A DNA stretch of 64,000 bases, from the IMG/VR virus record IMGVR_UViG_3300029914_000004; one strand, given 5' to 3'. Origin of the DNA: a virus (lineage: Duplodnaviria > Heunggongvirae > Uroviricota > Caudoviricetes). Below the pieces are notes generated by a model. It worked only from the letters and a program-made list of their open reading frames with translations. It was not told the origin of the DNA and did not search any database. This document shows positions 18,182-46,185 of this stretch, in pieces. Made by a program: the position numbers and the translations under genes. Positions within the stretch are counted from its first letter, which is position 1. The number at the start of each line of letters is the position of its first letter.

Positions 18182-18212
18182 CATATTCAAAACAAAGCAC
18201 TTATTTTCTTAT

Positions 18213-18240: not shown

Positions 18241-18483
18241 ATATTTGTAAGATAAATGGAGTTTTAGGTGTAGTAAAAATCCAAATGCAATTTAAAAGCA
18301 GATTTCGCCAAAAACTTATCATAAAGCGTCCACTGCTGCCAAAGTTTGGTCAGAACATGTATCTTTGTATATAGCACAAGATTTTGTACAGTTTGTTTGG
18401 GATTCTGTGCAATACCAACTAGCGTATCAGCGTAGTATCAAGATTTTCCAACAAATTCTACCATAATCAAAGGGGAATAAACA

Positions 18484-27814: not shown

Positions 27815-27876
27815 CTTTACATACATCGACAATCCAACAATTAATGTCAAATTAGTGGCTAAATTGCTGTCTTAAA
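27815..27876 (+). repeat. orphan 3'-end fragment of a DUF4116-like repeat gene (recombination remnant)
   Basis: ...YIDNPTINVKLVAKLLS* coding tail with no gene body, directly upstream of the next family promoter. Confidence 0.6.
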
Positions 27877-27904
27877 ATATTCAAAACAAAGCACTTATTT
27901 TCTT

Positions 27905-27933
27905 ATTGACAAATAAATTTATTTAGGATATTC
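27905..27933 (+). promoter_or_regulatory. family promoter
   Basis: TTGACAAATAAATTTATTTAGGATATTCT. Confidence 0.6.
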
Positions 27934-27940
27934 TTTATAT

Positions 27941-28474
27941 ATGAATGAAAAAGTACAAATGGCTGCTGTTCGACAATATGGTCGTGCAATTAAATACATC
28001 GACAAGCTAAGCGAAGCTGTGCAACTGGCTGTTGTTCGACAATATGGTCGTGCAATTAAATACATCGACAAGCCAAGCGAAGCTGTGCAACTGGCTGCTG
28101 TTCAACAAAATGGTTGGGTAATTCAATACATCAGCAAGCCAAGCGAAGCTGTGCAACTGGCTGCTGTTCAACGAAATAGTTGTGCAATTGAATACATCGG
28201 AAATCCAAGCGAAGCTGTGCAACTGGCTGCTGTTCGACAATATTGTTATGCAATTCAATACATCGACAAGCCAAGCGAAGCTGTGCAACTGGCTGCTGTT
28301 CAACAAGATTGTTATGCAATTCAATACATCGACAAGCCAAGCGAAGCTGTGCAACTGGCTGCTGTTCAACAAGATGGTCGTGCAATTAAATACATCGACA
28401 AACCAAGCGAAGCTGTGCAAATGGCTGCTGTTCAACAATATGGTCGTCCAATTAAATACATAAGGAAAAGATAA
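27941..28474 (+). CDS. DUF4116-like tandem-repeat protein (about 8 repeats)
   Basis: Repeats as in 17480..18181; C-terminus diverges (YIRKR). Confidence 0.7.
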   Translation: MNEKVQMAAVRQYGRAIKYIDKLSEAVQLAVVRQYGRAIKYIDKPSEAVQLAAVQQNGWVIQYISKPSEAVQLAAVQRNSCAIEYIGNPSEAVQLAAVRQYCYAIQYIDKPSEAVQLAAVQQDCYAIQYIDKPSEAVQLAAVQQDGRAIKYIDKPSEAVQMAAVQQYGRPIKYIRKR

Positions 28475-32754: not shown

Positions 32755-32783
32755 TTGACAAATAAATTTATTTAGGATATTCT
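32755..32783 (+). promoter_or_regulatory. family promoter
   Basis: TTGACA-N17-TATTCT. Confidence 0.6.
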
Positions 32784-32789
32784 TTATAT

Positions 32790-32963
32790 ATGGATGAAAA
32801 AGCACAACTGGCTGCTGTTCAACGAAATGGTTGGGCAATTCAATTCATCAGAAATCCAAGCGAAACTGTGCAACTGGCTGCTGTTCAACAAGATGGTCAT
32901 GCAATTGAATTTATCGACAATCCAACAATTAATGTCAAATTAATGGCTAAATTGCTGTCTTAA
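32790..32963 (+). CDS. DUF4116-like repeat protein (minimal two-repeat copy, 57 aa)
   Basis: MDEKAQLAAVQRNGWAIQFIRNPSETVQLAAVQQDGHAIEFIDNPTINVKLMAKLLS. Confidence 0.6.
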   Translation: MDEKAQLAAVQRNGWAIQFIRNPSETVQLAAVQQDGHAIEFIDNPTINVKLMAKLLS

Positions 32964-32994
32964 CATATTCAAAACAAAGCACTTATTTTCTTAT

Positions 32995-33023
32995 TGACAA
33001 ATCACCTAAAGTTTAGTATACTT
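32995..33023 (+). promoter_or_regulatory. family promoter with a conventional leader (TTGACA-N17-TATACT)
   Basis: Followed by a 22-nt leader with a GGAG RBS. Confidence 0.55.
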
Positions 33024-33041
33024 ATTTTAGTGGAGAAAACT

Positions 33042-34367
33042 ATGACCAAGATGAATCAAAATGCGCTGGCAGTAATGGAGACTCTTGAAAATGCAGGGTA
33101 CGATGCCTTTTTATGCGGGGGCGCGGTCAGAGATTTGCTTCTTGGCTTGACTCCACACGATTGGGATGTAACTACTTCTGCCCCTGCTGAAGTCGTGGAT
33201 TCTCTCTTTCCCAATACAAAGATGGTGGGAGAAAATTTTGGCGTTTCTCTTGTTGAATACAATGGAGAAACATTTGAAGTTGCGCGATTCCGTCGTGATG
33301 GAGATTATAGCGATAATCGCCGCCCAGATTTTGTGGACTTCACTTTGTCTGCTGAAGAAGATGTTGCTAGAAGAGATTTTACCATGAATGCTTTGCTCAT
33401 GGATCGAAACGGAAATGTTTACGATTTTGTTGGTGGACAGACTGATTTGCAGAATGGTTTGCTCCGGGCTGTTGGAAATCCTGAAACTCGTTTCACTGAA
33501 GATGCATTGCGTTTACTTCGAGCTGTCCGTTTCGCAGCGCGATTTAATCTTCGATTTGATCGGGAAACTCATGAAGCAATAGAAAAGAGGGCTTTTTCTG
33601 TTGAAACTCTTCCGCCTGATCGTGTTAGCGGAGAACTTGTCAAGATGCTGACTGGTGGCAATGTCAATGTTGCTTTCAAGCTTATGGACAACACTGGATT
33701 GCTTCAGCATGTTTTGCCTGAAGTCAATGCAATGCGTGGTGTGGATCAAAATAGCAAATTTCATCCAGAAGGAGATGTTTTTCAGCATACTCTGCTCATG
33801 CTGTCTAAGCTTCCTGCGAATTGCAGCGTCACTCTTGCCTTGTCTGTCCTTCTTCATGATGTGGCAAAACCAACAACTGCTGTTCGTAACGTAAAGACTG
33901 GTGAAAATCAGTTTTTTGGCCACGAAACAGTCGGTGCTGAAATGGCTGCAAAGATGCTTCGCAATCTTCGATTTTCAAATGAAGTTGTAGATGCTGTTAG
34001 CAGCCTTGTTTCTCAGCACATGAAGTTTTTCAACGTAACGAAGATGAATGATTCCAAGTTGAAGAGATTCGTTCGTCAGGAAAATTTCAGCGAATTGCTT
34101 GAACTGAATCGTCTTGATAGTCTTTGCAGTAATGGTGATCTCACTGATTTCAATTTTGCTGTTGATTTTCTTGCAAGTGTCACTGAAGAGTCTTTGAATC
34201 CTGTTCGTCTGCTTACTGGAAACGATTTGCAGGCAATGGGGTTGAAGCCTGGCCCGATGTTTAAGACTTTGCTTACTGCACTCGAAAATGCGCAGCTTGA
34301 CGGGCGTGTAACAACTCGTGACGAAGCTGTATTTTTCGTTGAATCTTTGACTGGCGGAGACAGGTAA
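33042..34367 (+). CDS. cca: CCA-adding enzyme (tRNA nucleotidyltransferase, head domain plus HD domain)
   Basis: Pol-beta nucleotidyltransferase motif LCGGAVRDLLLG..DWDV; RRDFTMNAL; C-terminal HD domain LLHDVAKP; about 45% GC. Confidence 0.8.
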   Translation: MTKMNQNALAVMETLENAGYDAFLCGGAVRDLLLGLTPHDWDVTTSAPAEVVDSLFPNTKMVGENFGVSLVEYNGETFEVARFRRDGDYSDNRRPDFVDFTLSAEEDVARRDFTMNALLMDRNGNVYDFVGGQTDLQNGLLRAVGNPETRFTEDALRLLRAVRFAARFNLRFDRETHEAIEKRAFSVETLPPDRVSGELVKMLTGGNVNVAFKLMDNTGLLQHVLPEVNAMRGVDQNSKFHPEGDVFQHTLLMLSKLPANCSVTLALSVLLHDVAKPTTAVRNVKTGENQFFGHETVGAEMAAKMLRNLRFSNEVVDAVSSLVSQHMKFFNVTKMNDSKLKRFVRQENFSELLELNRLDSLCSNGDLTDFNFAVDFLASVTEESLNPVRLLTGNDLQAMGLKPGPMFKTLLTALENAQLDGRVTTRDEAVFFVESLTGGDR

Positions 34368-34388
34368 ATCCTGTCTCCGCTTTATTTT
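34354..34388 (+). terminator. rho-independent terminator overlapping the cca stop
   Basis: GCGGAGACAGG-TAAAT-CCTGTCTCCGC followed by TTTATTTT. Confidence 0.75.
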
Positions 34389-34591
34389 GGAGGAATAATG
34401 CTAATTAAAACCAATAAAGATTATTCATACTTCTTGAATGTGTACCAAAACAAGACTGGAAAACATCCCACGTTTGTTGAGAGAACTGAAGCATTTTTCT
34501 GTGCAAAGGACGGGACTTTGCCAAATTGGATGTGGTGGTAATATATGAGCCATCACTTACGTTGAGTTCAAAACAGTTAAAAGGAGAAACA

Positions 34592-34804
34592 ATGCTTTAT
34601 CTTGTAATAATTTATGTATTCATCGGTTTTACTGTGGCTGGACTAGCAACTGATTTGACTATTAAAACTACGTTGGATCAAAAGCCTGAACTGACAGAAT
34701 TAGTTCAAAAATCCATTTTTATATATAGATCAGTTTTAATTTTGTTTTTTGTAGTTGGTTGGGGGCCAATTCTCATTACATATTTTATTAAAAATAAACA
34801 ATAA
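34592..34804 (+). CDS. small membrane protein
   Basis: RBS AAGGAG; two hydrophobic helices; in the frame of ORF 34526..34804. Confidence 0.45.
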   Translation: MLYLVIIYVFIGFTVAGLATDLTIKTTLDQKPELTELVQKSIFIYRSVLILFFVVGWGPILITYFIKNKQ

Positions 34805-34851
34805 TTTGGGATATCATTGACTTTCACGATAAATACTGATACACTGTTAGT

Positions 34852-35133
34852 ATGAGGTGGAAAATGAATTGGATTGACGCTATTACCATTGAAAGCAATA
34901 AAAAAATTCGAGAAGCTGGCAAGCATGTTGTGGTAATTCCTGCTCAAAATGTCTCTGCTCCAATCGATACATTCGATGTATTTGACGGAAATACCTGCCA
35001 ATTTATTGCCACTAATGTTTCAGAAAAGACCGCAAGCGAATTTGCATTAATTTGGAATGGATTGATTGATAATGGAGAAAGTGTGGAAAATATTAGTCGA
35101 ATCAATTTGGGATGGCTGACTGGAGTGAAGTAA
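34852..35133 (+). CDS. hypothetical protein
   Basis: 93-aa ORF. Confidence 0.45.
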   Translation: MRWKMNWIDAITIESNKKIREAGKHVVVIPAQNVSAPIDTFDVFDGNTCQFIATNVSEKTASEFALIWNGLIDNGESVENISRINLGWLTGVK

Positions 35134-35316
35134 ATGTATATTCCAGAAGAGATGTTTGCAATTCGTTCACACGCTCCAAACCGAAAATTTGAAATTTTTG
35201 GCACAATAGTTTGTTTAACTTCTTCTTCTGAAATAGGTAGTATAATTGAAACTTTTAAATTTTCATCTAATCAAGAAGCTAAAGATGCAGTACTTTTGGT
35301 GAAATTATCAACATGA
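35134..35316 (+). CDS. small protein with the C-terminal EAKD..LVKLS motif (family variant)
   Basis: FKFSSNQEAKDAVLLVKLST. Confidence 0.4.
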   Translation: MYIPEEMFAIRSHAPNRKFEIFGTIVCLTSSSEIGSIIETFKFSSNQEAKDAVLLVKLST

Positions 35317-35531
35317 AAATTGATCTACAAGACGATTGTGATTTTCACAATATTGATTTTCATATCGGTAACGCTTGGAGAAGAAAGTTTTCTGTTGACT
35401 TATATAGAAGTTTTTGGTGTGTTAAAGTAACACATATTTCACGAACATTCCTTGCAACTAATTCGTATGTAAAATGTTCTTCAAAACAAGAAGCAACATT
35501 ATTGGCATTAGAATGCTCTTTATCAGAATAG
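35313..35531 (+). CDS. small hypothetical protein (family variant)
   Basis: VKCSSKQEATLLALECSLSE tail. Confidence 0.35.
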   Translation: MKIDLQDDCDFHNIDFHIGNAWRRKFSVDLYRSFWCVKVTHISRTFLATNSYVKCSSKQEATLLALECSLSE

Positions 35532-35540
35532 AAAGGTAAT

Positions 35541-35735
35541 ATGGAGAAGAAAGTAACGAAAGATTTCTCATCAACAAAAGAAGCATTGGATTTTATCACT
35601 GCTCTGGAAAACCAAAAAATTAATGGTTTACTAAATTGTTTCTTGAACAAGGACAAAACATATAATTGGCTTGTAACATATATCCCAAAAACAACAGTAA
35701 AGGAAAAGAAAAATGAAGATCGAAAGATTGCTTGA
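35541..35735 (+). CDS. small protein carrying the family motif at its N-terminus
   Basis: FSSTKEALDFITALENQK. Confidence 0.35.
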   Translation: MEKKVTKDFSSTKEALDFITALENQKINGLLNCFLNKDKTYNWLVTYIPKTTVKEKKNEDRKIA

Positions 35736-36681
35736 AGTTCCAACTGGCCATATTTGTATTGCTCAAGGTAGTGAAGGGAAAATTGAATTTTTATCTCTCG
35801 GAGATTATGGGCAAGATGTAAATTTGAATCAACACAAAGCTGTTGCTCACCAAGAAATTATGCCTTTAACAGAAAAATGGGTAATTACAGTGTCAACGCA
35901 ATTTGGGTGCAGTATGGGATGTAGTTTTTGCGATTGCCCCAAAGTTGGACCTGGAAAGAATGCGTCTTTTTACGATCTCACTGGTCAAATTTTGTGTGCG
36001 CTAAAACTTCATCCAGAAATTACTGGCACAAAGAGATTGAATGTTCACTTCGCCAGAATGGGAGAACCTACTTGGAATCCTAACGTCCTTGATTGTGGAA
36101 AGTGGCTCCATACTCACATGAACGACACTTTTCATATTCATCCAGTAGTGTCAACAATGATGCCGCGTAGGAATATCTGGTTGAAGACATTCATCCACAA
36201 CTGGATGAGGATGAAGAACCGTTTGTACAACGGAAATGCAGGACTTCAACTGTCGATCAACTCAACGAGTAAGAGTGAGCGCGACAAGATGTTTCATAAC
36301 AACGCTTGCACGTTTGAAGAGATCGCAAGGATTATGGAAGGAATTATTCCTGTAGGAAGAAAGATCACTCTCAATTTCGCTGTTGCCGGTTACGAGATTG
36401 ATCCAACCGTGCTATTGAACTACTTCGATCCATCGCTTTACGTGTGCAAGCTAACTCCGATGCATAAGACGCACACTGCTCTTGATAACGGGATTCAAAC
36501 GGAAGGTGATTACACTGACTTCCATCCGTACATCCACCACGAGGATGCTTTGAAGAAGGCAGGGTATGATGTGCTCACTTTCATCGCTTCCGTAGAAGAG
36601 GATTTAGGTAGGATCACTTGTGGAAATGCCATTTTAAGTGGAACGCTTCCGCTGGTTGATTATAAAGAGACTTATTTATGA
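35713..36681 (+). CDS. radical SAM RNA methyltransferase-like (RlmN/Cfr family-like)
   Basis: STQFGCSMGCSFCDC (CX3CX2C in an RlmN-like context), ARMGEPTWN (MGEP-type SAM motif), later conserved Cys ITCGN; GC-richer than the background. Confidence 0.5.
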   Translation: MKIERLLEVPTGHICIAQGSEGKIEFLSLGDYGQDVNLNQHKAVAHQEIMPLTEKWVITVSTQFGCSMGCSFCDCPKVGPGKNASFYDLTGQILCALKLHPEITGTKRLNVHFARMGEPTWNPNVLDCGKWLHTHMNDTFHIHPVVSTMMPRRNIWLKTFIHNWMRMKNRLYNGNAGLQLSINSTSKSERDKMFHNNACTFEEIARIMEGIIPVGRKITLNFAVAGYEIDPTVLLNYFDPSLYVCKLTPMHKTHTALDNGIQTEGDYTDFHPYIHHEDALKKAGYDVLTFIASVEEDLGRITCGNAILSGTLPLVDYKETYL

Positions 36682-37310
36682 GTAACTTTGATAAACTGAA
36701 GAAACAATTAGATAAAGCAGAGGAAAATGCTTCTATTAAACGTGAAGAATTTTATGGTTTAATCACAGAAGTATTGTCTGTATTTAATTTGAATAATGAT
36801 CATTACGACGATGTATGGTCAAATGAAACTCATGTAATTGTGAACTATAGCTGGAGGGCTGCTGGATGTAACTGCTCAGATTCTATTACTCTCCCAAAGT
36901 CAATTTTTGATGCTGCTGATCCTGTTGCCGTCGCAAAAATTTATAAAAATGATCTTGATAATAGCAAGAAAAAGTCTGAACGTTCAATAAAATTAGAAGA
37001 ATTTAATGCTTTAAAGAAAGAACTTGGTGTAAAAATAATGAAAGCAACTCATCCAATACAACCATTAGTTAGCGACAAAGTTGGAACAACCAGATTTAAA
37101 GAAAATGCTATTGTTAGCTATCTTATTGACATTGCAACACAAAAAGGCATAGCAGACATGAATTCTCTGGCTATTATGAATTTCTCAAATGAAGATCGTG
37201 AGCAATTTGCTCAACTGATTGGATATTCATTGGACGGATTTGGTGAATTATCATATGTAAGTGATGAGACATATGATTTGGCTGCAAAGCAAAAAGTTTT
37301 TAAGGAATAA
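36678..37310 (+). CDS. hypothetical protein
   Basis: 210-aa ORF. Confidence 0.5.
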   Translation: MSNFDKLKKQLDKAEENASIKREEFYGLITEVLSVFNLNNDHYDDVWSNETHVIVNYSWRAAGCNCSDSITLPKSIFDAADPVAVAKIYKNDLDNSKKKSERSIKLEEFNALKKELGVKIMKATHPIQPLVSDKVGTTRFKENAIVSYLIDIATQKGIADMNSLAIMNFSNEDREQFAQLIGYSLDGFGELSYVSDETYDLAAKQKVFKE

Positions 37311-37329
37311 ATACAAGTGTTAAATAACG

Positions 37330-37700
37330 CTCGTGAAAGGACAGTATAAAATCAACGGACAACACACCGGTTCAACTCCGGTCAGGTCCACCAAATTTAT
37401 GATTCAATGTTTTATTTGGGCCTGTCATGGTATCGATTGACGTGTGGTTGGACTACTGACGAGCCGACTGGTGTGGCCATCGTAAATGGACACATAAACA
37501 ATAATTGCTACCTCTGGTATCAATGGCAGTGCAAAGATTTTCACGTATTCTGTGAATCTCCGCAACACTGAGCTAGTAAACGCCTAATAAGCTTTACTCC
37601 GAGGAGTTGTTCCGTCCTTGTAAAAGAAACGGAACTATAAAATTTCCTTTAACAACTCAGTAGATCACTGCATATAGGACAATTTTATTTTGCATCTAGA
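37330..37700 (+). ncRNA. ssrA: candidate circularly permuted (two-piece) tmRNA-like RNA
   Basis: T-arm plus 3' acceptor plus CCA (ACCGGTTCAACTCCGGT-CAGGTCC-A-CCA; GGTTCAACTCC is identical to the E. coli tmRNA T-arm) with no 5' acceptor upstream; perfectly complementary 5' acceptor GGGCCTG 14 nt downstream, followed by ATCGATTGACG (compare tmRNA GGATTCGACG); 420-nt ORF-free, GC-richer, hairpin-rich region; possible tag frame ending AAC GCC TAA TAA. Confidence 0.4.
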
Positions 37701-37741
37701 AAATAATGTAGATATTTCATTCTTATAGATAAGTTATCATC

Positions 37742-37924
37742 ATGAAAAAATTAATATATAAAATTCGTTTTGATCTTGGTTTCCTTTATCCATATGTTGT
37801 ATATAACTTTTTAGAAGGAACCACTATGGTTGATGACTTTCCTGAGCATGTGGAACATATAGAATTTTTTAAAACTGAGCAAGAAGCCAAAGATTTTATT
37901 CTAATAGAAAAGTTGGCAGCATGA
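37742..37924 (+). CDS. small-protein array gene 1 (C-terminus EQEAKDFILIEKLAA)
   Basis: Conserved roughly 45-nt 3' block; ATGA overlap with the next gene. Confidence 0.55.
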   Translation: MKKLIYKIRFDLGFLYPYVVYNFLEGTTMVDDFPEHVEHIEFFKTEQEAKDFILIEKLAA

Positions 37925-38097
37925 AAATAATATATACAATCGTCCCTCCATTTGAAGAAGAAATGAAATGGATGGTTATGAAAAGATGGATATCATCACA
38001 GGATGCATGTGTAGATTATAAAATACCAAGATTTTACAGATTTGAATCTGAGCAAGAAGCTGAAAATTTCATTTTATTAGAAAAGTTAGCATCATGA
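37921..38097 (+). CDS. small-protein array gene 2 (C-terminus SEQEAENFILLEKLAS)
   Basis: 58 aa; ATGA-coupled; below the ORF-track cutoff. Confidence 0.5.
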   Translation: MKIIYTIVPPFEEEMKWMVMKRWISSQDACVDYKIPRFYRFESEQEAENFILLEKLAS

Positions 38098-38285
38098 AAT
38101 ACTCATATCGTATAGATCATATTAAATATAGAACAATCTTTCAATGGTCAGTTAGAAAATATTCAAATTATTCTCATCCAAACAATAACAATTCGTGGGC
38201 GTGGAATTTATTATCAGAAAGTTTTTATTTTGAAACTGAGCAAGAAGCCAAAGATTTTGTTCTAATAGAGAAATTATCATCATGA
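38094..38285 (+). CDS. small-protein array gene 3 (C-terminus TEQEAKDFVLIEKLSS)
   Basis: ATGA-coupled. Confidence 0.55.
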   Translation: MKYSYRIDHIKYRTIFQWSVRKYSNYSHPNNNNSWAWNLLSESFYFETEQEAKDFVLIEKLSS

Positions 38286-38455
38286 AAATAACATATGAGC
38301 TACTTGAATTAGATAATGGATGGGGAGTAGCTGCGCGGCAGCAAAAAACTCCGCAAGATGCATTTCTTCGTCAAGAGGCAAGAACAAATATGTTTTGGTT
38401 TTCAAATAGAAAAGAAGCAGAAGATTTCATTTTAATAGAAAAGTTGGCAGAATGA
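38282..38455 (+). CDS. small-protein array gene 4 (C-terminus NRKEAEDFILIEKLAE)
   Basis: 57 aa; ATGA-coupled. Confidence 0.5.
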   Translation: MKITYELLELDNGWGVAARQQKTPQDAFLRQEARTNMFWFSNRKEAEDFILIEKLAE

Positions 38456-38637
38456 AAAAATATACAATCATCCCTCCACAGGAATACAATGATAAATGGA
38501 TAGTCCGGGAAAGACTATATGTTGGAGATACTGAATGTGTGATTAATACCATTGAACTTAAAATTCCTAAAGTTTATATATTTGATTCTAAGAAAGAAGC
38601 AGAAGATTTCATTTTAATAGAAAAATTATCATCATGA
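38452..38637 (+). CDS. small-protein array gene 5 (C-terminus SKKEAEDFILIEKLSS)
   Basis: ATGA-coupled. Confidence 0.55.
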   Translation: MKKYTIIPPQEYNDKWIVRERLYVGDTECVINTIELKIPKVYIFDSKKEAEDFILIEKLSS

Positions 38638-38774
38638 AACGAAAATATAATCTTTATCATCTTACAAAATGGTATGTAGAAGTATGGGCTGAAAGTTTAT
38701 GCCCTCTTTTATATTCATTTGATTCTAAGAAAGAAGCAGAAGATTTCATTTTAATAGAAAAATTATCATCATGA
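38634..38774 (+). CDS. small-protein array gene 6 (C-terminus SKKEAEDFILIEKLSS)
   Basis: 46 aa; its 3' 45 nt are identical to gene 5. Confidence 0.45.
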   Translation: MKRKYNLYHLTKWYVEVWAESLCPLLYSFDSKKEAEDFILIEKLSS

Positions 38775-38798
38775 AACTAAGAAAGAGGCAGAAAAATT

Positions 38799-39056
38799 AT
38801 GTCAATGAAAATTTTATGCACGCCAACAAAATCAGCGAGTGATTTTGGAGAATATAATCCAATCAGAAAATGGAAAATTGAACCAAAAATTTATGAACCA
38901 GAAAAATTTCTTTACAAAACATGGTTTGAATTAAATAGCGAGGATACTAAAAGAAACTATGGTGTTTCATTCTTACTGGGAACATTATTTACAGCAGAAT
39001 TCACCTCCAAAAAAGAAGCTGAAATTTTTTCAGTAATAGATAAACTCATAAGTTGA
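38799..39056 (+). CDS. small-protein array gene 7 (C-terminus SKKEAEIFSVIDKLIS)
   Basis: 85 aa; overlaps the start of the next gene. Confidence 0.55.
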   Translation: MSMKILCTPTKSASDFGEYNPIRKWKIEPKIYEPEKFLYKTWFELNSEDTKRNYGVSFLLGTLFTAEFTSKKEAEIFSVIDKLIS

Positions 39057-40483
39057 TAAATACTAATATGAGATTCAATGAACTATTAACGGAATACAAT
39101 TCAAGTCCATCAAATTTGATAAATTTAGCATCTCAAATAGATGCTAGGGTTGGAATTGAATTTGAAATGATAGTTCCAGGAATTTTGAAGAAACTTGTAA
39201 AAGAACGCGATAGTGATGCTGATGTTTATTGTACATCAATTGATCAAATTGTAGATTTCTTTGATCATGATCAAATAAATTCGCCTCATGATTTGCGATA
39301 TTTACGAACTAGCCTTGAAACAAATTTTAGAGAATATCTTGAGAATAAAGCTGACAAAAACTGGGATAAAGAAGAAGATATTGTTCTTCATAAATATGCT
39401 GAAGAACAAACTGGAGAAGACGAAGAATGCGAGGAGTTATATAACGATCTTCTTCGTGGAAAAAGCAGAGAGTTTTTTAATATTAAAGAAGATTGGATTC
39501 AAGAGTGGATTCTAGATAATAAATATTCTCTGGAATCTGATTGGTTGGACGATGCTGGCTATGTAACTATGGAAGAAGTAAACAGAGAACATGATATTGA
39601 CTGGCCATACTTTCTTGAAGTTAATTCAGGAGGAGATTTGGATTTAGATGATTTGGCTGATGAATTTGAATATGTAATTCAAAATAAAGTATCAGTCAAT
39701 AATGAATATCATAATCAAACCAAAAGATTGGATAGTTGGTATCTAGAGCCTGATGAAAGTATTATTCCCAGCGGGAATGATTCAACTGGCTTGGAATTTG
39801 TATCTCCTCCAATGCCATTTTTAGAAATGGTAGTTTCTATTAACAAAATTATTTCATGGGCAACGAGCAATAACTATTATACTAATAAATCTACTGGACT
39901 GCATGTTAACGTAAGTATAAAAAATGGTAAATTGCTCAACATAGATTATGTCAAATTAGTTCTATTGCTTGGTGATAATTATATTCTAGATAAATTTGGC
40001 AGAGGAGCAAATAGCTACTGTAGACCAGCATTGGGAAAGATTAATGCTGCGATTAAGCTTCATCCAGAAATGATTAGAAATTATTTAATGCAAATGAAAC
40101 AACAATTAAATAATTTTTCTATGAAACTTATAACAACTACAGACAAGTACACCAGCATCAATTTAAAAAGCGGTTATGTTGAATTTAGAAGTCCAGGCGG
40201 AAATTGGTTAAAAGAAGATATTACGGTGCTTCAATCAACCATTGCCAGATTTATTGTTGCATTAGATGCTGCATGTGATCCCACTAAATATCAAAAAGAA
40301 TACGCAACAAAATTATATAAATTAATTCAAGGATCTACACCTACTGATGAAAACTCTGATACTATTTCATATTTTTCTCAGTACGCTGCTGGAAAATTAA
40401 GCAAAGAAGAATTAGTATCAATCATAAAACAAATACAATCTAATAGAAATTATACCAAATATAAACCTACAATAGAAAGTTGA
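39053..40483 (+). CDS. hypothetical acidic protein
   Basis: 476-aa ORF, D/E-rich. Confidence 0.55.
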   Translation: MINTNMRFNELLTEYNSSPSNLINLASQIDARVGIEFEMIVPGILKKLVKERDSDADVYCTSIDQIVDFFDHDQINSPHDLRYLRTSLETNFREYLENKADKNWDKEEDIVLHKYAEEQTGEDEECEELYNDLLRGKSREFFNIKEDWIQEWILDNKYSLESDWLDDAGYVTMEEVNREHDIDWPYFLEVNSGGDLDLDDLADEFEYVIQNKVSVNNEYHNQTKRLDSWYLEPDESIIPSGNDSTGLEFVSPPMPFLEMVVSINKIISWATSNNYYTNKSTGLHVNVSIKNGKLLNIDYVKLVLLLGDNYILDKFGRGANSYCRPALGKINAAIKLHPEMIRNYLMQMKQQLNNFSMKLITTTDKYTSINLKSGYVEFRSPGGNWLKEDITVLQSTIARFIVALDAACDPTKYQKEYATKLYKLIQGSTPTDENSDTISYFSQYAAGKLSKEELVSIIKQIQSNRNYTKYKPTIES

Positions 40484-41064
40484 AATACATGTCGCAAAAA
40501 TTATCATCCACTAAAATCCAATATATGGATTTAGAAATGCAATGTTGGGAAGATGGAAATTGCCCCATAGATCAAACAAATCATATAATTCAAATTGGAT
40601 TAGTTGAAGTTGATGCAACTGACCTAGTGATAATTCGTCAAGAAAATTATTATATCAGACCAAAAAATAAAAATTTTGATATTAGTAATTATTGTACAAA
40701 TCTTACTGGTATTACCAAAGAAAAAATTATTTCAGAAGGACGAAGATTTTCGGATGTAATGCAGACGATAAAAAATGAATTCAGCCCCAGGAATAAAGTA
40801 TCATATTCTTGGGGATCAGACAATGATGCAATCATAAGTCATTGTAAAGATTATAACTGTTATAATCCATGGCAAAATACAGGAATTTGGGATTTAGGAA
40901 TTATATTTCAAAGTACATTCTTATTGAAACGAAAACTTGCTTTGGGAAAAGCATTGGAATTTTTAAATGTGCCTTTTAATGGCACTCCTCATAATGCTGT
41001 TTGGGATGCTGCTTCATTGGCTGATTTGCACATAGAAATGATGAAGAGATTGAGAGAGAAATAA
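40480..41064 (+). CDS. DEDDh 3'-5' exonuclease (DnaQ/RNase T-like)
   Basis: Motif I YMDLEM and motif III HNAVWDAASLADL (H-x4-D). Confidence 0.55.
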   Translation: MKYMSQKLSSTKIQYMDLEMQCWEDGNCPIDQTNHIIQIGLVEVDATDLVIIRQENYYIRPKNKNFDISNYCTNLTGITKEKIISEGRRFSDVMQTIKNEFSPRNKVSYSWGSDNDAIISHCKDYNCYNPWQNTGIWDLGIIFQSTFLLKRKLALGKALEFLNVPFNGTPHNAVWDAASLADLHIEMMKRLREK

Positions 41065-41158
41065 TGATAGAAGATATAGACAGTATTATTCCAATGGAAG
41101 CAACAACAGAAGAAGATGCATTTCTTTGGTATCTTAATGGAGAGTTGGCGGATAAAAA

Positions 41159-41599
41159 ATGAAAATAGAATTATATCATTCCGAACTTGCTACTTTATTA
41201 AAAGCATTGAGTCCATTTACTAATCCACAAGAATGGGAAAGCGAAGAATTCGAGAATATTAATAATATTCTAAAAGAAAAAATTGCTGATCCTTTTATTA
41301 GAAGTTGTGCTTCTGGACACGCTAAAATTTTTTATCCTGGTGAATGGAATATTTCTACAATAATTGATACAGTACGAGAAAGAGAATATTTTAATATTTT
41401 GATTGTTGGTGATGAATATAAATATAACGAAATATATAATATCTGCAACTCAGTTGATAATCCACATATAAAAATCGCAAATAAAACAAGAAATTTTATT
41501 GATTTTTATTCAGGGCCAATGTGCCATTTTTTAAATTGTAAAGATGAAAATATTGAAAATAAAATACGAGGTACGAGATACGATTGTATGTTTTTATAA
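41159..41599 (+). CDS. hypothetical protein
   Basis: 146-aa ORF. Confidence 0.45.
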   Translation: MKIELYHSELATLLKALSPFTNPQEWESEEFENINNILKEKIADPFIRSCASGHAKIFYPGEWNISTIIDTVREREYFNILIVGDEYKYNEIYNICNSVDNPHIKIANKTRNFIDFYSGPMCHFLNCKDENIENKIRGTRYDCMFL

Positions 41600-41644
41600 T
41601 TGACATTATGAAAATTTATATGTATGATAAATTAAGAGGAATAA

Positions 41645-42196
41645 ATGAATATTATATATAAAGAAATTGAATTTGATTATGGACATAGAGTTGCACTACA
41701 TGAAACTTTTGACGGCAAGCCAGGAAAATGTAGTTCATGTCATGGCCACAGAGGGAAAGTGATTGCTTATCTTTCTGGAAAATTATTTGAGAGTGGCCCC
41801 CAAACTCAAATGATTTTTGATTATGGTTTTCTAAAAAATTTACTTGTTGAAAATATTGATGCTCATTGCGATCATGCTATGATATTGTCGTTTAAAGATG
41901 AAAAATTTATGGGAATGGCATATAGTGATCGATTGACTAAAGAAATTTATATAGATTGGCATAATAATATCAAAAAATCAATTAAAATTGATAGTTTTTG
42001 GTTTGGTCAAACAAATTTTGGAAAAACATATATCATAGCAGATTACCCAACAGCAGAATCTTTGGCCAAACATTTTTTTGAAATTTTAAGACCAAAAATT
42101 TTAGTTGCTACAAACAATCAAGCACGACTAGATTCTATAGTATTCAAAGAAACTCCTACTTCTGGCGCTGAATACAAAGGAAATTATGTGGATTAA
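41645..42196 (+). CDS. queD: 6-pyruvoyl-tetrahydropterin synthase family (QueD-like)
   Basis: FDYGHR...CSSCHGH (C-x3-HGH zinc motif), DAHCDHAMIL (compare DHHYLN). Confidence 0.65.
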   Translation: MNIIYKEIEFDYGHRVALHETFDGKPGKCSSCHGHRGKVIAYLSGKLFESGPQTQMIFDYGFLKNLLVENIDAHCDHAMILSFKDEKFMGMAYSDRLTKEIYIDWHNNIKKSIKIDSFWFGQTNFGKTYIIADYPTAESLAKHFFEILRPKILVATNNQARLDSIVFKETPTSGAEYKGNYVD

Positions 42197-42389
42197 TCCA
42201 ACAAATGTGACAGGTCCTATTGAATATCACTATGATCGTCGAGAGAAAATTCCTGAAGAACATAGATGCAAACAGTGCGATGGCCTTGGTATATATCGAT
42301 GGCGACATAGTTGTTTTGTGACAGATGAAGGAGATTGGAAAGAATGTTGGTCTTGTAACGGAAGTGGAATAAAAACTGTACGTTTTTAG
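42186..42389 (+). CDS. DnaJ-type zinc-finger (CxxCxGxG x2) small protein
   Basis: CKQCDGLGIY and CWSCNGSGI. Confidence 0.5.
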   Translation: MWINPTNVTGPIEYHYDRREKIPEEHRCKQCDGLGIYRWRHSCFVTDEGDWKECWSCNGSGIKTVRF

Positions 42390-42463
42390 TTGGCATTTCA
42401 TGTTTATCATGATACTATTACTTCAGTGAGTAAATAAACCACTCATAGATATGCATATAACGC

Positions 42464-42494
42464 CAAAATCCAGAGCATTTGCTCTGGATTTTCG
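42464..42494 (+). terminator. rho-independent terminator
   Basis: AATCCAGAGCA-TT-TGCTCTGGATTTT. Confidence 0.7.
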
Positions 42495-42528
42495 ACATTT
42501 GGTTGATTCTAAAGAACTTATTTTCTTA

Positions 42529-42557
42529 TTGACAAATAAATTTATTTAGGATATTCT
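42529..42557 (+). promoter_or_regulatory. family promoter
   Basis: TTGACA-N17-TATTCT then 6 nt then ATG. Confidence 0.6.
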
Positions 42558-42563
42558 TTATAT

Positions 42564-43046
42564 ATGAATGAAAAAGCACAACTGGCTGCTGTTCAACAAA
42601 ATGGTTATGCAATTCAATACATCGACAAGCCAAGCGAAGCTATGCAAATGGCTGCTGTTCAACAAAATGGTTGTGCAATTGAATACATCAGCAAGCCAAG
42701 CGAAGCTGTGCAAATGGCTGCTGTTCAACAAAATGGTCGGGCAATTTACTACATCGACAAGCCAAGCGAAGCTGTGCAACTGGCTGCTGTTCAACAAAAT
42801 GGTTATGCAATTGAATACATCGACAAGCCAAGCGAAGCTGTGCAAATGGCTGCTGTTCAACAATATGGTCGTGCAATTGAATACATCAGCAAGCCAAGCG
42901 AAGCTGTGCAAATGGCTGCTGTTCAAGAAGATAGTTGGGCAATTTGCTACATCGACAAGCCAAGCGAAACTGTGCAAATGGCTGCTGTTCAACGAAATTA
43001 TTGGGCAATTCAATTCATAAAAAGCCAACAATTAATGTCAAATTAA
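42564..43046 (+). CDS. DUF4116-like tandem-repeat protein (about 7 repeats; frameshifted C-terminus)
   Basis: An A-run one nt shorter than in sister copies converts ...KPTINVKLMAKLLS into ...SQQLMSN*. Confidence 0.65.
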   Translation: MNEKAQLAAVQQNGYAIQYIDKPSEAMQMAAVQQNGCAIEYISKPSEAVQMAAVQQNGRAIYYIDKPSEAVQLAAVQQNGYAIEYIDKPSEAVQMAAVQQYGRAIEYISKPSEAVQMAAVQEDSWAICYIDKPSETVQMAAVQRNYWAIQFIKSQQLMSN

Positions 43047-43096
43047 TGGCTAAATTGCTGTCTTAAAATATTCAAAACAAAGCACTTATTTTCTTA

Positions 43097-43125
43097 TTGA
43101 CTTTACTCTTAACCTTTGATACAAT
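43097..43125 (+). promoter_or_regulatory. promoter (TTGACT-N17-TACAAT)
   Basis: Near-duplicate of 18213; leader carries GGAGAG RBS. Confidence 0.5.
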
Positions 43126-43143
43126 ATATTTATTGGAGAGTAT

Positions 43144-43455
43144 ATGACTGATATGACAGTTGCAAAGACGATTCTAGAACAGCTCGGCGGCCCTCGTTTT
43201 TTGGTAATGACTGGCGCTCGTGGTCTGGTTGGCTCCGAAAATTCTCTTAGTTTCAAAGTTCCAAATGCCGCAAAGAAGATTACACAAGTGATTATAACTA
43301 TAATGCCTTCAGATACTTACAAGATGGAATTCATAAATTGCCGAATGGCGGCGCATGGGTTAAAACGTGAAATTATCAGTTCATTTGATGATGTTTATTG
43401 TGATCAACTTCAAAAAATCTTCACTGAAGAGACAGCTCTTTATACTCATATTTAA
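43144..43455 (+). CDS. hypothetical protein (GC-richer cassette)
   Basis: 103-aa ORF. Confidence 0.45.
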   Translation: MTDMTVAKTILEQLGGPRFLVMTGARGLVGSENSLSFKVPNAAKKITQVIITIMPSDTYKMEFINCRMAAHGLKREIISSFDDVYCDQLQKIFTEETALYTHI

Positions 43456-43496
43456 ATTATACATATTATCATATATAATCCATCCATAAAGTAAAC

Positions 43497-43526
43497 AAAA
43501 GCCCCATGAGATTGTCATGGGGCTTT
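43497..43526 (+). terminator. rho-independent terminator
   Basis: AAAAGCCCCATGA-GATTG-TCATGGGGCTTTC. Confidence 0.75.
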
Positions 43527-43720
43527 CTGCTACGCCAAAATACCTTTTTAAGTCATTGATTCTAAAGACCCAAAAACAAGAAAAATGCCCTATAACCCGC
43601 TCTAAGCCCCTCAGACATGTCCAAGTGCCATAAAGCAAATAATATTGCTTAAAAGGCATTTTTAAGCTCTTTGTTTTGTGTTTGTTACAAATTGTTGATT
43701 GCAAAGCACTTATTTTCTTA

Positions 43721-43749
43721 TTGACAAATAAATTTATTTAGGATATTCT
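43721..43749 (+). promoter_or_regulatory. family promoter
   Basis: TTGACA-N17-TATTCT. Confidence 0.6.
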
Positions 43750-43755
43750 TTATAT

Positions 43756-44127
43756 ATGAATGAAAAAGCACAACTGGCTGCTGTTCAACGAAATTATCGT
43801 GCAATTCAATACATCGACAAGCCAAGCGAAGCTGTGCAAATGGTTGCTGTTCAACAATATGGTCGTGCAATTTACTACATCGACAAGCCAAGCGAAGCTG
43901 TGCAACTGGCTGCTGTTCAACAAGATGGTCGTGCAATTCAACACATCGACAAGCCAAGCGAAGCTGTGCAAATGGCTGCTGTTCAAGAAACTAGTCGGGC
44001 AATTTGCTACATCGACAAGCCAAGCGAAACTGTGCAAATGGCTGCTGTTCAACGAGATAGTTGGGCAATTCAATTCATAAAAAAGCCAACAATTAATGTC
44101 AAATTAATGGCTAAATTGCTGTCTTAA
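43756..44127 (+). CDS. DUF4116-like tandem-repeat protein (about 5 repeats)
   Basis: Repeats plus canonical C-terminus PTINVKLMAKLLS. Confidence 0.7.
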   Translation: MNEKAQLAAVQRNYRAIQYIDKPSEAVQMVAVQQYGRAIYYIDKPSEAVQLAAVQQDGRAIQHIDKPSEAVQMAAVQETSRAICYIDKPSETVQMAAVQRDSWAIQFIKKPTINVKLMAKLLS

Positions 44128-44157
44128 CATATTCAAAGCAAAGCACTTATTTTCTTA

Positions 44158-44186
44158 TTGACAAATAAATTTATTTAGGATATTCT
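44158..44186 (+). promoter_or_regulatory. family promoter
   Basis: TTGACA-N17-TATTCT. Confidence 0.6.
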
Positions 44187-44192
44187 TTATAT

Positions 44193-44828
44193 ATGGATGA
44201 AAAAGCACAACTGGCTGCTGTTCGACAAGATGGTCGTGCAATTAAATACATCGACAAGCCAAGCGAAGCTGTGCAAATGGCTGCTGTTCGACAAGATGGT
44301 TGGGCAATTAAATACATCAGCAAGCCAAGCGAAGCTGTGCAAATGGCTGCTGTTCAACAATATGGTCGTGCAATTTACTACATCGACAAGCCAAGCGAAG
44401 CTGTGCAAATGGCTGCTGTTCAACAATATGGTCGTGCAATTTACTACATCGACAAGCCAAGCGAAGCTGTGCAACTGGCTGCTGTTCAACAAACTAGTCG
44501 TGCAATTCAATACATCGACAAGCCAAGCGAAGCTGTGCAAATGGCTGCTGTTCAACAATATGGTTGTGCAATTTACTACATCGACAAGCCAAGCGAAGCT
44601 GTGCAACTGGCTGCTGTTCAACAAGATGGTCGTGCAATTCAACACATCGACAAACCAAGCGAAGCTGTGCAACTGGCTGCTGTTCAAGAAGATGGTTGTG
44701 CAATTAAATACATCAGCAAGCCAAGCGAAGCTGTGCAAATGGCTGCTGTTCAACAAAATGGTTGTGCAATTGAATGCATAAAAAAGCCAACAATTAATGT
44801 CAAATTAATGGCTAAATTGCTGTCTTAA
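44193..44828 (+). CDS. DUF4116-like tandem-repeat protein (about 10 repeats)
   Basis: Repeats plus canonical C-terminus. Confidence 0.7.
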   Translation: MDEKAQLAAVRQDGRAIKYIDKPSEAVQMAAVRQDGWAIKYISKPSEAVQMAAVQQYGRAIYYIDKPSEAVQMAAVQQYGRAIYYIDKPSEAVQLAAVQQTSRAIQYIDKPSEAVQMAAVQQYGCAIYYIDKPSEAVQLAAVQQDGRAIQHIDKPSEAVQLAAVQEDGCAIKYISKPSEAVQMAAVQQNGCAIECIKKPTINVKLMAKLLS

Positions 44829-44858
44829 CATATTCAAAGCAAAGCACTTATTTTCTTA

Positions 44859-44887
44859 TTGACAAACAACCCAAACTTTGGTATTAT
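44859..44887 (+). promoter_or_regulatory. family promoter (TTGACA-N17-TATTAT), leaderless
   Basis: Same architecture; ATG 6 nt after the -10. Confidence 0.5.
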
Positions 44888-44893
44888 CTTTAT

Positions 44894-44986
44894 ATGGAGG
44901 AACACATGACGACTTTTCTGATCAAAGAAATCAAGATTTTGGCAATTCTTACACTCGCTACCATTCTGTTTGCTGCGTTTACCTAA
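44894..44986 (+). CDS. tiny membrane peptide (30 aa)
   Basis: MEEHMTTFLIKEIKILAILTLATILFAAFT. Confidence 0.3.
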   Translation: MEEHMTTFLIKEIKILAILTLATILFAAFT

Positions 44987-45011
44987 AATCTGAAAATTCT
45001 GAATTTTTAGG

Positions 45012-45040
45012 TTGACAAACACCACCAACTTTGTTATGAT
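45012..45040 (+). promoter_or_regulatory. family promoter (TTGACA-N17-TATGAT) with a leader and GGAG RBS
   Basis: Same spacing. Confidence 0.5.
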
Positions 45041-45062
45041 TAAAACACTGGAGAAAACAACG

Positions 45063-46142
45063 ATGGCTACAGTAACAATCATGAATGGCTCGTGTAAAGG
45101 TCAACGAATCAAGAACCAAACTTTCCGTCTCATTCAAGGCTTTAAAATTGAGCACGGAATTGGTTTCGTAACTGTTGATGGCACATCACTTACTGGTCGG
45201 ACTGCCGCTCGTGTCAAAGTTGGTCGTAATGATTTTGTGGTAAATGGAGAAGCATCTGGAAAGCGCGGCCGCAAGCCAAATGCAGTGAATGCAACAACTG
45301 GCAGCGTATCTATTGTTGATCGCCAGCTTGAAATTGAGCCTGAGCCAGAATCCACTGAGACTGATGAAGAAATTTTGACTCGCATCAGCAAACGTTTTGA
45401 TATTCTCAACAAGATGACTCTTGGCGCACGTAATGGAGATATTCGCGCTCTCTTTGTTGTTGGCGCTCCTGGTGTTGGCAAAACGTACGGAGTCGAAAAG
45501 ACTCTTGAAGACGCTGGCTTGATCGAAACATTTTCTGGAGAATCAAAAAAGTTTCAAATTATTTCTGGCGCAGCTAGTGCAGTTGGGTTGTATATGAAGC
45601 TTTATGAATTCCGTGAAGATAACAACGTTCTTGTTTTTGACGATTGTGATTCTATTTTCACAGACGAATTAATGCTGAATCTTATGAAAGCTGCTTTGGA
45701 CACCTCTGCAAAGCGCATGATTCACTGGAATGTGGATTCAGTTTCTCTTCGCCGTGGCGATGTGCCGAATTCATTTGAATTCAAAGGAAGCGTGATCTTC
45801 ATTTCAAACGTTAACTTCCGCAAGATTCGCTCTGAACGTATGCGCGGCCACATCACTGCCCTTGCTTCGAGAAGTCATTTTTTGGACTTGACTATCAGTA
45901 CTGACCGCGAAAAGCTGCTTCGTATTGAAGACTTGGTTACTAACAAAGGAATGCTGAAGCAGTTTAAGCTTTCTGATAAAACTTCAGCAAAAGTTATGAA
46001 GTTCATTCGTGATCATGCCGCTGAGTTCAACGAATTATCTCTTCGCACCGTAATTAAACTTTCTGGATTAGCCCGAACTTTTGAAGATAATGACGAGTGG
46101 ATGGATGTTGCTCGTATGAGTCTTATGGGAAATATAATCTAA
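45063..46142 (+). CDS. P-loop (AAA-type) ATPase, GC-richer cassette
   Basis: Walker A VVGAPGVGKTYG; Walker B VLVFDDCD; about 45% GC; in the frame of ORF 45012..46142. Confidence 0.55.
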   Translation: MATVTIMNGSCKGQRIKNQTFRLIQGFKIEHGIGFVTVDGTSLTGRTAARVKVGRNDFVVNGEASGKRGRKPNAVNATTGSVSIVDRQLEIEPEPESTETDEEILTRISKRFDILNKMTLGARNGDIRALFVVGAPGVGKTYGVEKTLEDAGLIETFSGESKKFQIISGAASAVGLYMKLYEFREDNNVLVFDDCDSIFTDELMLNLMKAALDTSAKRMIHWNVDSVSLRRGDVPNSFEFKGSVIFISNVNFRKIRSERMRGHITALASRSHFLDLTISTDREKLLRIEDLVTNKGMLKQFKLSDKTSAKVMKFIRDHAAEFNELSLRTVIKLSGLARTFEDNDEWMDVARMSLMGNII

Positions 46143-46155
46143 AAACAAAAACAAA

Positions 46156-46185
46156 AAAGCAGAGATAAAAGTCTCTGCTTTTTGT
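46156..46185 (+). terminator. rho-independent terminator
   Basis: GCAGAGA-TAAAAG-TCTCTGC followed by TTTTT. Confidence 0.7.

Follow-up and report, generated by a model that had tools for sequence, protein, structure and literature searches.

Positions 32,995 to 46,142 of the IMG/VR virus record IMGVR_UViG_3300029914_000004 raise the question of whether a promoter that recurs in front of GC-richer genes marks sites at which foreign genes were recently captured, or whether the repeated sequence came there in another way. By the window we mean the whole 64,000-nucleotide (nt) stretch of DNA that was analysed, which includes the gene of a CCA-adding transfer RNA (tRNA) nucleotidyltransferase (cca), a small gene starting at 43144 and a P-loop ATPase gene. 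The initial annotation had placed one TTGACA-N17-TATNNT promoter with a T-rich upstream element before all three and regarded them as morons. The reading that we consider probable is promoter-mediated modular shuffling, in which a cassette carrying a DUF4116 gene would be the mobile cargo, parked at old resident promoters. Relatives were compared by tblastn, namely L012 (guanine plus cytosine (GC) content 30%), L013 (36%), L015 (32%) and the more distant L019 (40%).

Promoters and the DUF4116 cassette family

Consensus promoters were strongly enriched, with 21 TTGACA-N16-18-TATNNT sites in the window compared to 1.47 expected, a number that was reached in 0/100 shuffles, and those at 32994, 44859 and 45012 were found where the initial annotation had located them. 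When 44 promoters from the window and its relatives were aligned, TTGACA, an extended -10 (TtTG), TATACT and a T-rich upstream region were conserved. The consensus begins with a T-rich element of approximately TTGATTCTAAAG-ACTTATTTT, followed by TTGACA, a 17-nt spacer often ending in TG, TATACT and atatttgt, and is predicted to represent one strong sigma-70-type class across the clade. Many transcription units are closed by hairpin terminators.

One particular promoter, TTGACAAATAAATTTATTTAGGATATTCT, is present in six identical copies in the window, each followed by ttatat and then by the ATG that opens a gene built of 66-nt tandem repeats, corresponding to 22 amino acids (aa). These are referred to as the family promoter and the family genes, and the repeated unit as the cassette. 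The 211-aa family protein matched Pfam DUF4116 (PF13475) with 92.4 bits (cut-off 24.9, E=1e-26), and family proteins also matched phrog_5925 and phrog_17056, two PHROGs families with no functional annotation. A structure model of the 211-aa protein was an alpha-solenoid of helix-turn-helix repeats (predicted local distance difference test score, pLDDT, 88), for which Foldseek found no match with E <0.1 in the PDB.

In 8/8 family copies, the -10 is followed by 6 nt (ttatat) and the ATG with no Shine-Dalgarno sequence, in agreement with the leaderless geometry already described for this family. As the A of the ATG is located 7 nt past the last -10 base and there is no Shine-Dalgarno sequence, the DUF4116 mRNAs are predicted to be leaderless. 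The same spacing without a Shine-Dalgarno sequence was also seen at non-family genes, including 3119-3330 (ORF 3154, a 58-aa open reading frame (ORF) behind a diverged family promoter), 51006-51586 (an Rv2179c-like exonuclease gene with an ambiguous start) and positions 84-140 of contig L033 (a DUF2201-like metallopeptidase gene). This phage or its host may make general use of leaderless starts.

Family copies are located at ~2850 (diverged), 17480, 27941, 32790, 42564, 43756 and 44193, with one more just past the window end in contig L036. The copies in the window are near-identical at their ends, and their internal repeats share 85-93% identity. A copy of the T-rich element and the -35 hexamer terminates each cassette; the repeated unit runs from promoter to promoter, therefore it closes with a second upstream element and -35. 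Contigs that were >99% identical to the window differed from it by whole 66-nt units in three cassettes (+198, +132 and +66 nt).

Four of the cassettes, all on the + strand, lie within or directly before positions 32,995 to 46,142. The first consists of a family promoter (32755..32783) and a short 57-aa gene (32790..32963), with a hairpin upstream (32607-32652). The second, at 42529..43046, carries its promoter at 42529-42557 and a 160-aa gene at 42564-43046 (182 aa in strain L025), and a + strand hairpin (ccagagc-attt-gctctgg, 42470..42487) is located 42 nt upstream of this promoter. The third (43721..44127) has a promoter and a 123-aa gene (43756-44127), and a module ~150 nt upstream of it recurs in L033 and at the copy that lies past the window end (L036). 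The fourth and last (44158..44828) has a promoter and the 211-aa gene (44193-44828), the product of which is 123, 211 or 255 aa across strains (123 aa in L005, 255 aa in L006).

Two further + strand cassettes were found outside this range. The one at 17445..18246 contains a promoter, a 233-aa gene, the tail and a promoter variant, here called variant B. The one at 27820..28474 is permuted, in the order tail, upstream element, promoter and ORF, and has ATACAT on both flanks; it lies between the Rpb6-like and Metallophos genes, where the spacer is empty in L013 and L019, an arrangement that agrees with a circular or phase-matched fragment having been inserted. The repeat family genes themselves (GC ~0.42) account for a large part of the GC-richer signal at 17-18 kb, 28 kb and 42.5-44.8 kb.

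High-copy cassettes were missing from all four relatives at the sites that carry them in the window. The DUF4116 genes of the relatives are single and diverged, namely orthologues of window gene 29234 and the gene at 2076-2291 of L015. Judged from these comparisons, the cassette appears to be lineage-specific, with at least seven copies, and to have multiplied recently in the window lineage only. The T-rich element points the same way in time: it is found clade-wide in diverged form, and many exactly identical copies occur only in the window, which marks recent duplication or conversion. The exact element CTTATTTTCTTATTGAC was counted 12 times on the + strand compared to 0.97 expected, and a metagenome scan for the upstream element gave 4 loci.

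The exact element precedes cca (at 32982) and the 43144 gene (at 43085), so this part of the proposed common promoter was correct. The ATPase promoter at 45012 lacks it; the copy that had been assigned to the ATPase sits on the promoter at 44859, 150 nt upstream, which heads a 26-aa ORF. The promoter of the 43144 gene was also not the TTGACA/TATNNT sequence that had been reported but TTGACT-N17-TACAAT. When all promoters were aligned with their flanks, the element before a non-family gene always continued the tail of a family gene (AKLLS-stop-catattcaaa(a/g)caaagcacttattttcttaTTGAC), at 18212, 32994, 43097 and 44859. The shared upstream element at non-family genes can therefore be explained by a DUF4116 cassette located directly upstream each time.

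At cca, the cassette 3' flank on the + strand (32964..33001) consists of intergenic sequence, the T-rich element and the -35 (catattcaaaacaaagcacttattttcttaTTGACAAA), and identity with other cassette tails ends here. The cca promoter itself (32994..33022, + strand) has the -10 TATACT and the leader tattttagtGGAG. The 40 nt upstream of it were 0.97 identical to the cassette tails of the window, and its core best matched the cca promoters of L015 (0.78) and L012 (0.68). As the repeated unit spans from promoter to promoter, what had been read as the family promoter before cca has a mosaic structure. The promoter at 44859, here P1, has the same construction: a cassette tail with its upstream element is fused to a resident promoter (44829..44887, + strand), the 40 nt upstream had an identity of 1.00 with a cassette tail, and the spacer agreed with that of the L012 promoter at 18326 at 16/17 positions. 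At both promoters, identity with the other copies ends at TTGACAAA, after which the spacer, -10 and leader differ, so that the family promoter shares only its upstream element and -35 with them. The spacer, -10 and leader of the 45012 promoter differ from those of the family promoter as well.

In the remaining two cases, at 18212 and 43097, the common sequence includes variant B (TTGACT-N17-TACAAT) through the -10. The cassette tail and variant B before the 43144 gene (43047..43125, + strand) were 93% identical over 97 nt (90/97) to 18150-18246; the similarity stops ~7 nt past the -10, and the two sequences beyond are unrelated. The non-coding stretch at 18241-18480 was considered as a decayed copy of the 43144 gene and rejected, as no DNA or protein similarity was found beyond the promoter.

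The key junctions were reproduced with 99-100% identity in independent MEGAHIT (ENA) and JGI assemblies from different samples. They include family gene to cca promoter to cca, PTPS to cassette to 43144 gene, 43144 gene to the 123-aa cassette to the next cassette, and cassette to P1 to ATPase. The junction between the family gene and cca was also present in the independent contigs L007, L008, L009 and L011. Alternative joins, which were compared with window positions 13535-17945, 42511-43943 and 62881-64000, were found too. L033 matches window 43621-43726 with full identity as far as TTGACA, beyond which it has another promoter core and the DUF2201-like metallopeptidase gene, which is absent from the window. 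In L035, L036, L037, L038 and L040, from other samples, a cassette bridges differing 5' and 3' contexts; tandem- or circle-type joins of 43090 to 42523 and of 44866 to 42511 (L038 and L040) are among these.

Under modular shuffling, the upstream and -35 part of the strong early promoter class would supply portable homology, and homologous recombination within the shared ~40-60 nt could have set cassettes directly before resident promoters, including those of cca and the ATPase. In this reading, cca, the NrdC.10-like ATPase and the 25807 gene are old residents with promoters of their own. The outcome would be two rebuilt working promoters, a hybrid driving the resident gene and the family promoter driving the cassette.

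Resident genes, codon class and variable neighbours

The claim that one family promoter had captured a foreign cca and a foreign ATPase gene was not borne out by synteny. Gene order was kept in L012, L013, L015 and L019 for ThyX, Rpb6-like, Metallophos, DUF7205, cca, RNase_T and ATPase, and the conserved backbone consists of the RNA ligases, the 25807 gene, ThyX, Rpb6-like, Metallophos, DUF7205, cca, the 34864 gene, RNase_T and ATPase. At the same locus, cca was found in L012, L013 and L015, ATPase in L012 and L019, and the 25807 gene in 4/4 relatives, with 46-68% aa identity. The promoter cores were orthologous too, and the relatives had the same GC excess. The initial annotation had itself stated that the same genes, at the same loci and with the same GC in relatives, would indicate old, stable genes, and this is what was found for cca, ATPase and the 25807 gene.

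The cca gene (33042..34367, + strand) encodes a protein with the Pfam domains PolyA_pol, PolyA_pol_RNAbd and HD (phrog_2244). Phage-type relatives had 55-68% identity and the syntenic orthologues in L012, L013 and L015 63-68%, compared to ~51% at most for cellular homologues (Acidobacteriota), and cca is a resident gene of the phage clade. A terminator hairpin on the + strand (34353..34381) overlaps its stop codon. At this position in L012, a tRNA gene directly follows cca (11305-11378; Rfam tRNA, 67.6 bits), where the window has only the hairpin.

The ATPase gene (45063..46142, + strand) encodes a P-loop ATPase of the T4 NrdC.10 type (phrog_1250), is followed by a terminator hairpin (46154..46183) and is syntenic in L012 (60% identity) and L019 (46%). 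It too is a backbone gene. Its own promoter, P2 (45012..45040, + strand), is a resident promoter without the family upstream element and has counterparts at 19208 in L012 and 5191 in L019. The tandem pair of P1 and P2 was found at 44859/45012 in the window, 18326/19208 in L012 and 5114/5191 in L019, which makes the pair upstream of the ATPase ancestral. The slot between them contains no ORF in L019, one in the window and two in L012; the one in the window (44906..44986, + strand) encodes a hydrophobic peptide of 26 aa and is preceded by a GGAGG ribosome-binding site.

The 43144 gene (43144..43455, + strand) is a small accessory gene (phrog_9437, 'YahA-like' in some records) followed by a hairpin with a 13-bp stem (43497..43527). 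No match to it was found in the relatives sampled (L012, L013, L015 and L019). Its homologues are scattered in unrelated phages, including the closest one on a long contig (P0123, L016). Like cca and the ATPase gene, it has a conventional leader with GGAG before the ATG, as had been described for all three.

The GC and codon usage check confirmed that the named genes are GC-richer, with a GC content at third codon positions (GC3) above the ~0.21 in the background of other early genes. GC and GC3 were 0.437 and 0.353 for cca, 0.424 and 0.369 for the ATPase gene, 0.482 and 0.529 for the Nudix gene, 0.421 and 0.424 for the 35713 gene, 0.465 and 0.332 for the 25807 gene and 0.426 and 0.337 for the 17117 gene; the GC3 of the 43144 gene was 0.32. 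The orthologues of cca, ATPase and the 25807 gene were GC3-richer than their neighbours in every relative, for example in L012 (cca 0.30 and ATPase 0.32 compared to a median of 0.18), in L015 (cca 0.34 compared to 0.22) and in L019 (ATPase 0.556 compared to ~0.33). At conserved four-fold sites, the third base was shared at 0.24-0.47, compared to 0.28-0.34 expected at saturation. As the orthologues have the same GC3 excess and their synonymous sites are near saturation, the composition has been kept up and was not left behind by a recent import.

Composition followed promoters. In the window, the first gene after a consensus promoter had a median GC3 of 0.30 compared to 0.22 for the others (Mann-Whitney p=3e-5), and no difference was found between conserved and variable genes (p=0.27). 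By class, GC3 was ~0.30-0.37 in promoter-proximal early genes and ~0.21 in other early genes, and it was lowest (0.17) in a minus-strand block that includes structural-looking genes. The GC3-rich class uses AAG for 73% of Lys (14% in other early genes) and CGY for 72% of Arg, favours AAG, CGY and CTT and avoids TTA, AGA and ATA, preferences that are kept in the orthologues. High GC and a distinct codon class thus appear to be a conserved property of promoter-proximal genes predicted to be early. The class could be upheld by selection, most plausibly for translation with host tRNAs before the phage's own supply acts.

Variable genes were Nudix, Band_7, the 43144 gene, a radical-SAM-like gene (in L015 only), PTPS (in L013 only) and many small ORFs. 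No other gene in the window has compositional boundaries as sharp as those of the Nudix gene (29790-30254; GC 0.48, GC3 0.53); the Nudix gene was absent in 4/4 relatives, in which a different gene occupies the slot, and its best cultured-phage matches were Rhizobiales jumbo phages. It is the best candidate for recent import, though unlinked to any promoter or terminator. The radical-SAM-like gene (35713..36681, + strand), which has a CxxxCxxC motif and weak RlmN/Cfr similarity, is internal to an operon, lacks its own promoter and hairpin and was present in L015 and absent in L012 and L013. Its protein was 88% identical to the L015 copy, compared to ~65% for its neighbours. A recent transfer of this gene was considered and rejected: the four-fold sites were saturated (0.34 compared to 0.30 expected), therefore the protein is simply under strong constraint. 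Both genes overlap the stop of the preceding ORF, with neither their own promoter nor a following hairpin. The statement that the GC-richer genes end in hairpins therefore holds for cca, the 43144 gene and the ATPase gene and does not for Nudix and the 35713 gene. A consensus promoter (41600..41628, + strand) also precedes the QueD/PTPS gene (41645-42196), which is AT-rich despite its variable presence.

Alternative explanations and other features of the window

Modular shuffling is favoured by the way in which variable units are bounded by promoter motifs, as seen in the P1-P2 slot, in the cassettes at cca and P1 with their breakpoint at the -35 and in the L033 junction at TTGACA; the Nudix and radical-SAM-like genes do not follow this pattern. 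[quoted passage not shown]

Several points weigh against this reading. The junctions at 43097 and 18212 lie after the -10 and not at the -35, placing a whole promoter before two unrelated downstream sequences, as the initial annotation had proposed. A search among near-identical strains for empty cassette sites gave none, only differences in repeat number and ambiguous alternative joins; the joins in L033 and L035-L040 may be assembly chimeras across repeats, or they may be population recombinants or mini-circles. The direction, a gain of cassettes in the window lineage, rests on parsimony with four relatives at 46-82% protein identity, and the relatives' coverage excludes the 17-18 kb region with genes 17117 and 18484. 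Promoters, leaderless starts and early timing are all predictions from sequence. For the codon class, the preference for CTT, CGT and ACT is not a mere choice of GC-rich codons, and its link to host rather than phage tRNAs is hypothetical.

Two further readings, which seem to us possible though rather doubtful, are that the DUF4116 cassette is a self-propagating, promoter-targeting element, and that promoter-proximal immediate-early genes form a separate, selected, host-like codon class. As the unit runs from -35 to -35, the cassette could integrate into any early promoter of the class and leave both promoters working. Integration would occur by homologous recombination, possibly via excised mini-circles, and the leaderless alpha-solenoid gene, with its strain-variable repeat number, would perhaps be an arms-race factor against the host. 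The immediate-early genes would be translated before the tRNAs, the CCA-adding enzyme and the transfer-messenger RNA (tmRNA) machinery of the phage act.

Concerted evolution alone, in which long-resident DUF4116 genes were homogenised by gene conversion, the relatives lost their copies and nothing moved recently, is improbable. The copies in the window are indeed more alike at their ends than in their internal repeats, and relatives do have a DUF4116 gene next to a promoter of the class, such as L015 2076-2291, followed by the promoter at 2314. The four relatives without cassettes at the cca, Rpb6-like/Metallophos and ATPase sites would, however, require several independent losses, and the permuted 27820 copy bounded by ATACAT looks like an insertion. 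The two readings also overlap, because gene conversion, too, recombines sequences through this promoter homology.

We regard as similarly improbable the reading from which the analysis started, that a portable promoter and terminator serve as a docking and expression platform at which GC-richer foreign cca, ATPase and 43144 genes were recently captured as morons. By sequence prediction, each of the three is indeed a GC-richer single gene flanked by its own promoter (32994 for cca, 43097 for the 43144 gene and 45012 for the ATPase gene) and a hairpin, the complete variant B promoter does stand before two unrelated sequences, and the ~51% identity of cca to Acidobacteriota homologues would mean that it came from cells at some time. 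This reading nevertheless fails for cca and the ATPase gene because their loci are conserved and their composition is common to the orthologues, with synonymous sites near saturation, and because the ATPase promoter has no family element. GC3 does not track variable presence, and the most foreign-looking gene, Nudix, has neither promoter nor hairpin. For the 43144 gene, which was absent in the relatives and has scattered homologues in unrelated phages, a moron origin is possible.

That short-read assemblers chimerised unrelated regions through the repeated cassette is very unlikely: many contigs do end at cassettes, and L035, L036, L037, L038 and L040 do join differing contexts through one, but the joins that matter here were reproduced at 99-100% in independent assemblies from different samples, and the exact repeats at joins, of only ~40-60 nt, are below the final k-mer sizes.

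The window itself has a GC content of ~32%, and its source is an uncultured large phage. Exact protein look-ups led to peat/bog metagenomes (JGI, ENA) with contigs up to 148 kb, several other contigs being 99-100% identical to the window. A megablast of 32900-46200 against cultured phages gave no match, and an IMG/VR search for cca relatives found none; an ATPase search gave only the distant loci L001-L004, with a GC content of 43-46% and of little use for synteny. Many proteins match phage families, among them the tRNA nucleotidyltransferase, a QueD-like PTPS, an RNase_T-like exonuclease, an amidoligase and the NrdC.10-type ATPase, and tRNAs and a permuted tmRNA are also encoded. A DNA_pol3_alpha-like fragment in L005 and a clamp-loader-like gene were seen. 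By its appearance, the phage is of a large lytic type rather than a prophage, and 32995-46142 would be part of a + strand, early-type, hyperplastic region of short genes that is split into short transcription units.

The tmRNA (37329-37534, ARAGORN 37297-37678, + strand; Rfam RF04321, 73 bits) is of the permuted, two-piece type and is syntenic in L015 (15433-15699) and L019 (4003-4259), with 71-75 bits for RF04321 across the three. Its neighbours are RNA and translation genes (cca, two RNA ligases, the RlmN-like gene, QueD and tRNAs), and the tag peptide predicted by ARAGORN looks atypical. Clues to the host conflict: the nearest cellular cca homologues, from Acidobacteriota at ~51% identity, are a weak pointer in one direction, and the permuted tmRNA type and the best cultured-phage matches of DUF4116, Nudix and the 43144 gene (Atu_ph07, Sinorhizobium/Rhizobium phages) point to an alphaproteobacterial host, which would have a GC content far above that of the phage.

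Small paralogous proteins are encoded at several other places. At 37683-38780, a tandem array contains ~8 ORFs of ~57-63 aa that repeat every ~175 nt and meet at overlapping ATGA junctions (repeat family D4), one of which alone has a detectable homologue in L015. A second family, with the N-terminal motif K-V-L-x-I/V-Y-P-D/S/N-A, occurs on both strands, at 46808-47671 and, on the minus strand, at 61658-61849 and 62597-62827. The three proteins encoded at 10539-10877, 11998-12300 and 12312-12599 each open with ...(R/K)xGFVSNSSS(T/S)SF... Finally, the promoters at 25221-25249 and 25485-25513 are identical and repeated over 56 nt (D6). Each drives a small ORF with a hydrophobic product, and downstream of them come the 25674 promoter and the 25807 gene with its long structured leader. 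Cores related to this pair were found after the DUF4116 gene in L015 (2314) and also in L012 (4042).

Relation to known phage systems

The mechanism favoured here is a known way in which large phages shuffle genes. Promoter-early stem-loop cassettes (PeSLs) have been described in the modular shuffling of T4-type phages (Arbiol et al. 2010, PMC2839356; Comeau et al. 2014, PMC4122927). As in PeSLs, variable genes in the window are bounded by motifs, the inserted unit brings its own promoter, and the crossovers at the AT-rich and -35 part match the published model. Hairpins are also located 36-50 nt upstream of several promoters (17389-17409 before 17445, 42470 before 42529 and 46154 before 46232), and circle- or tandem-type junctions are present in L038 and L040. 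The stem-loop, however, does not seem to be an inherent part of the repeated motif here: the cassette-tail and promoter module has no hairpin in itself. The cargo also differs, being mainly one family, predicted to be leaderless, in at least seven copies compared to the diverse ORFans of PeSLs. The PeSL system is that of the T4 group with excised mini-circles, whereas the present case is known from contigs alone; the L038/L040 joins and the permuted 27820-28474 copy hint at mini-circles and are indistinguishable from assembly effects. Promoter-mediated modular shuffling, known from T4-type coliphages and vibriophages, would thereby be extended to an uncultured large environmental phage lineage, with an amplified DUF4116 gene of variable repeat number and leaderless geometry identified as its main moving part.

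The DUF4116 gene is also multicopy in other jumbo phages. In Agrobacterium phage Atu_ph07 and Salicola phage SCTP-2, tblastn found 15 places each, with 39-41% identity; these genes are annotated as hypothetical, and they were compared with the window cassette by sequence. A published contact-based model of DUF4116 is an alpha-solenoid (PMC8078820), with which our model agrees.

If confirmed experimentally, the window would offer a natural case of gene spread through regulatory sequences that act as portable homology, and of codon classes that are split between the translation resources of host and phage. Cowe and Sharp are said to have found in 1991 that codon usage in T4 depends on expression class; distinct codon usage classes within one phage genome are likewise seen here, with the timing of expression predicted from sequence.

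Morons of lambdoid and other temperate phages, as known from Hendrix and colleagues, are single-gene units with their own promoter and terminator and an atypical composition, and are defined by variable presence between otherwise syntenic relatives. The cca, 43144 and ATPase genes resemble them as single-gene promoter and terminator units of atypical composition. Variable presence at a syntenic position was found only for the 43144 gene; cca and the ATPase gene differ from morons in being conserved at their loci, and the deviating composition is shared by the orthologues and does not indicate recent import. Atypical GC content together with a private promoter and terminator is thus no proof of recent gene capture; the shared promoter half is here the footprint of a neighbouring cassette.

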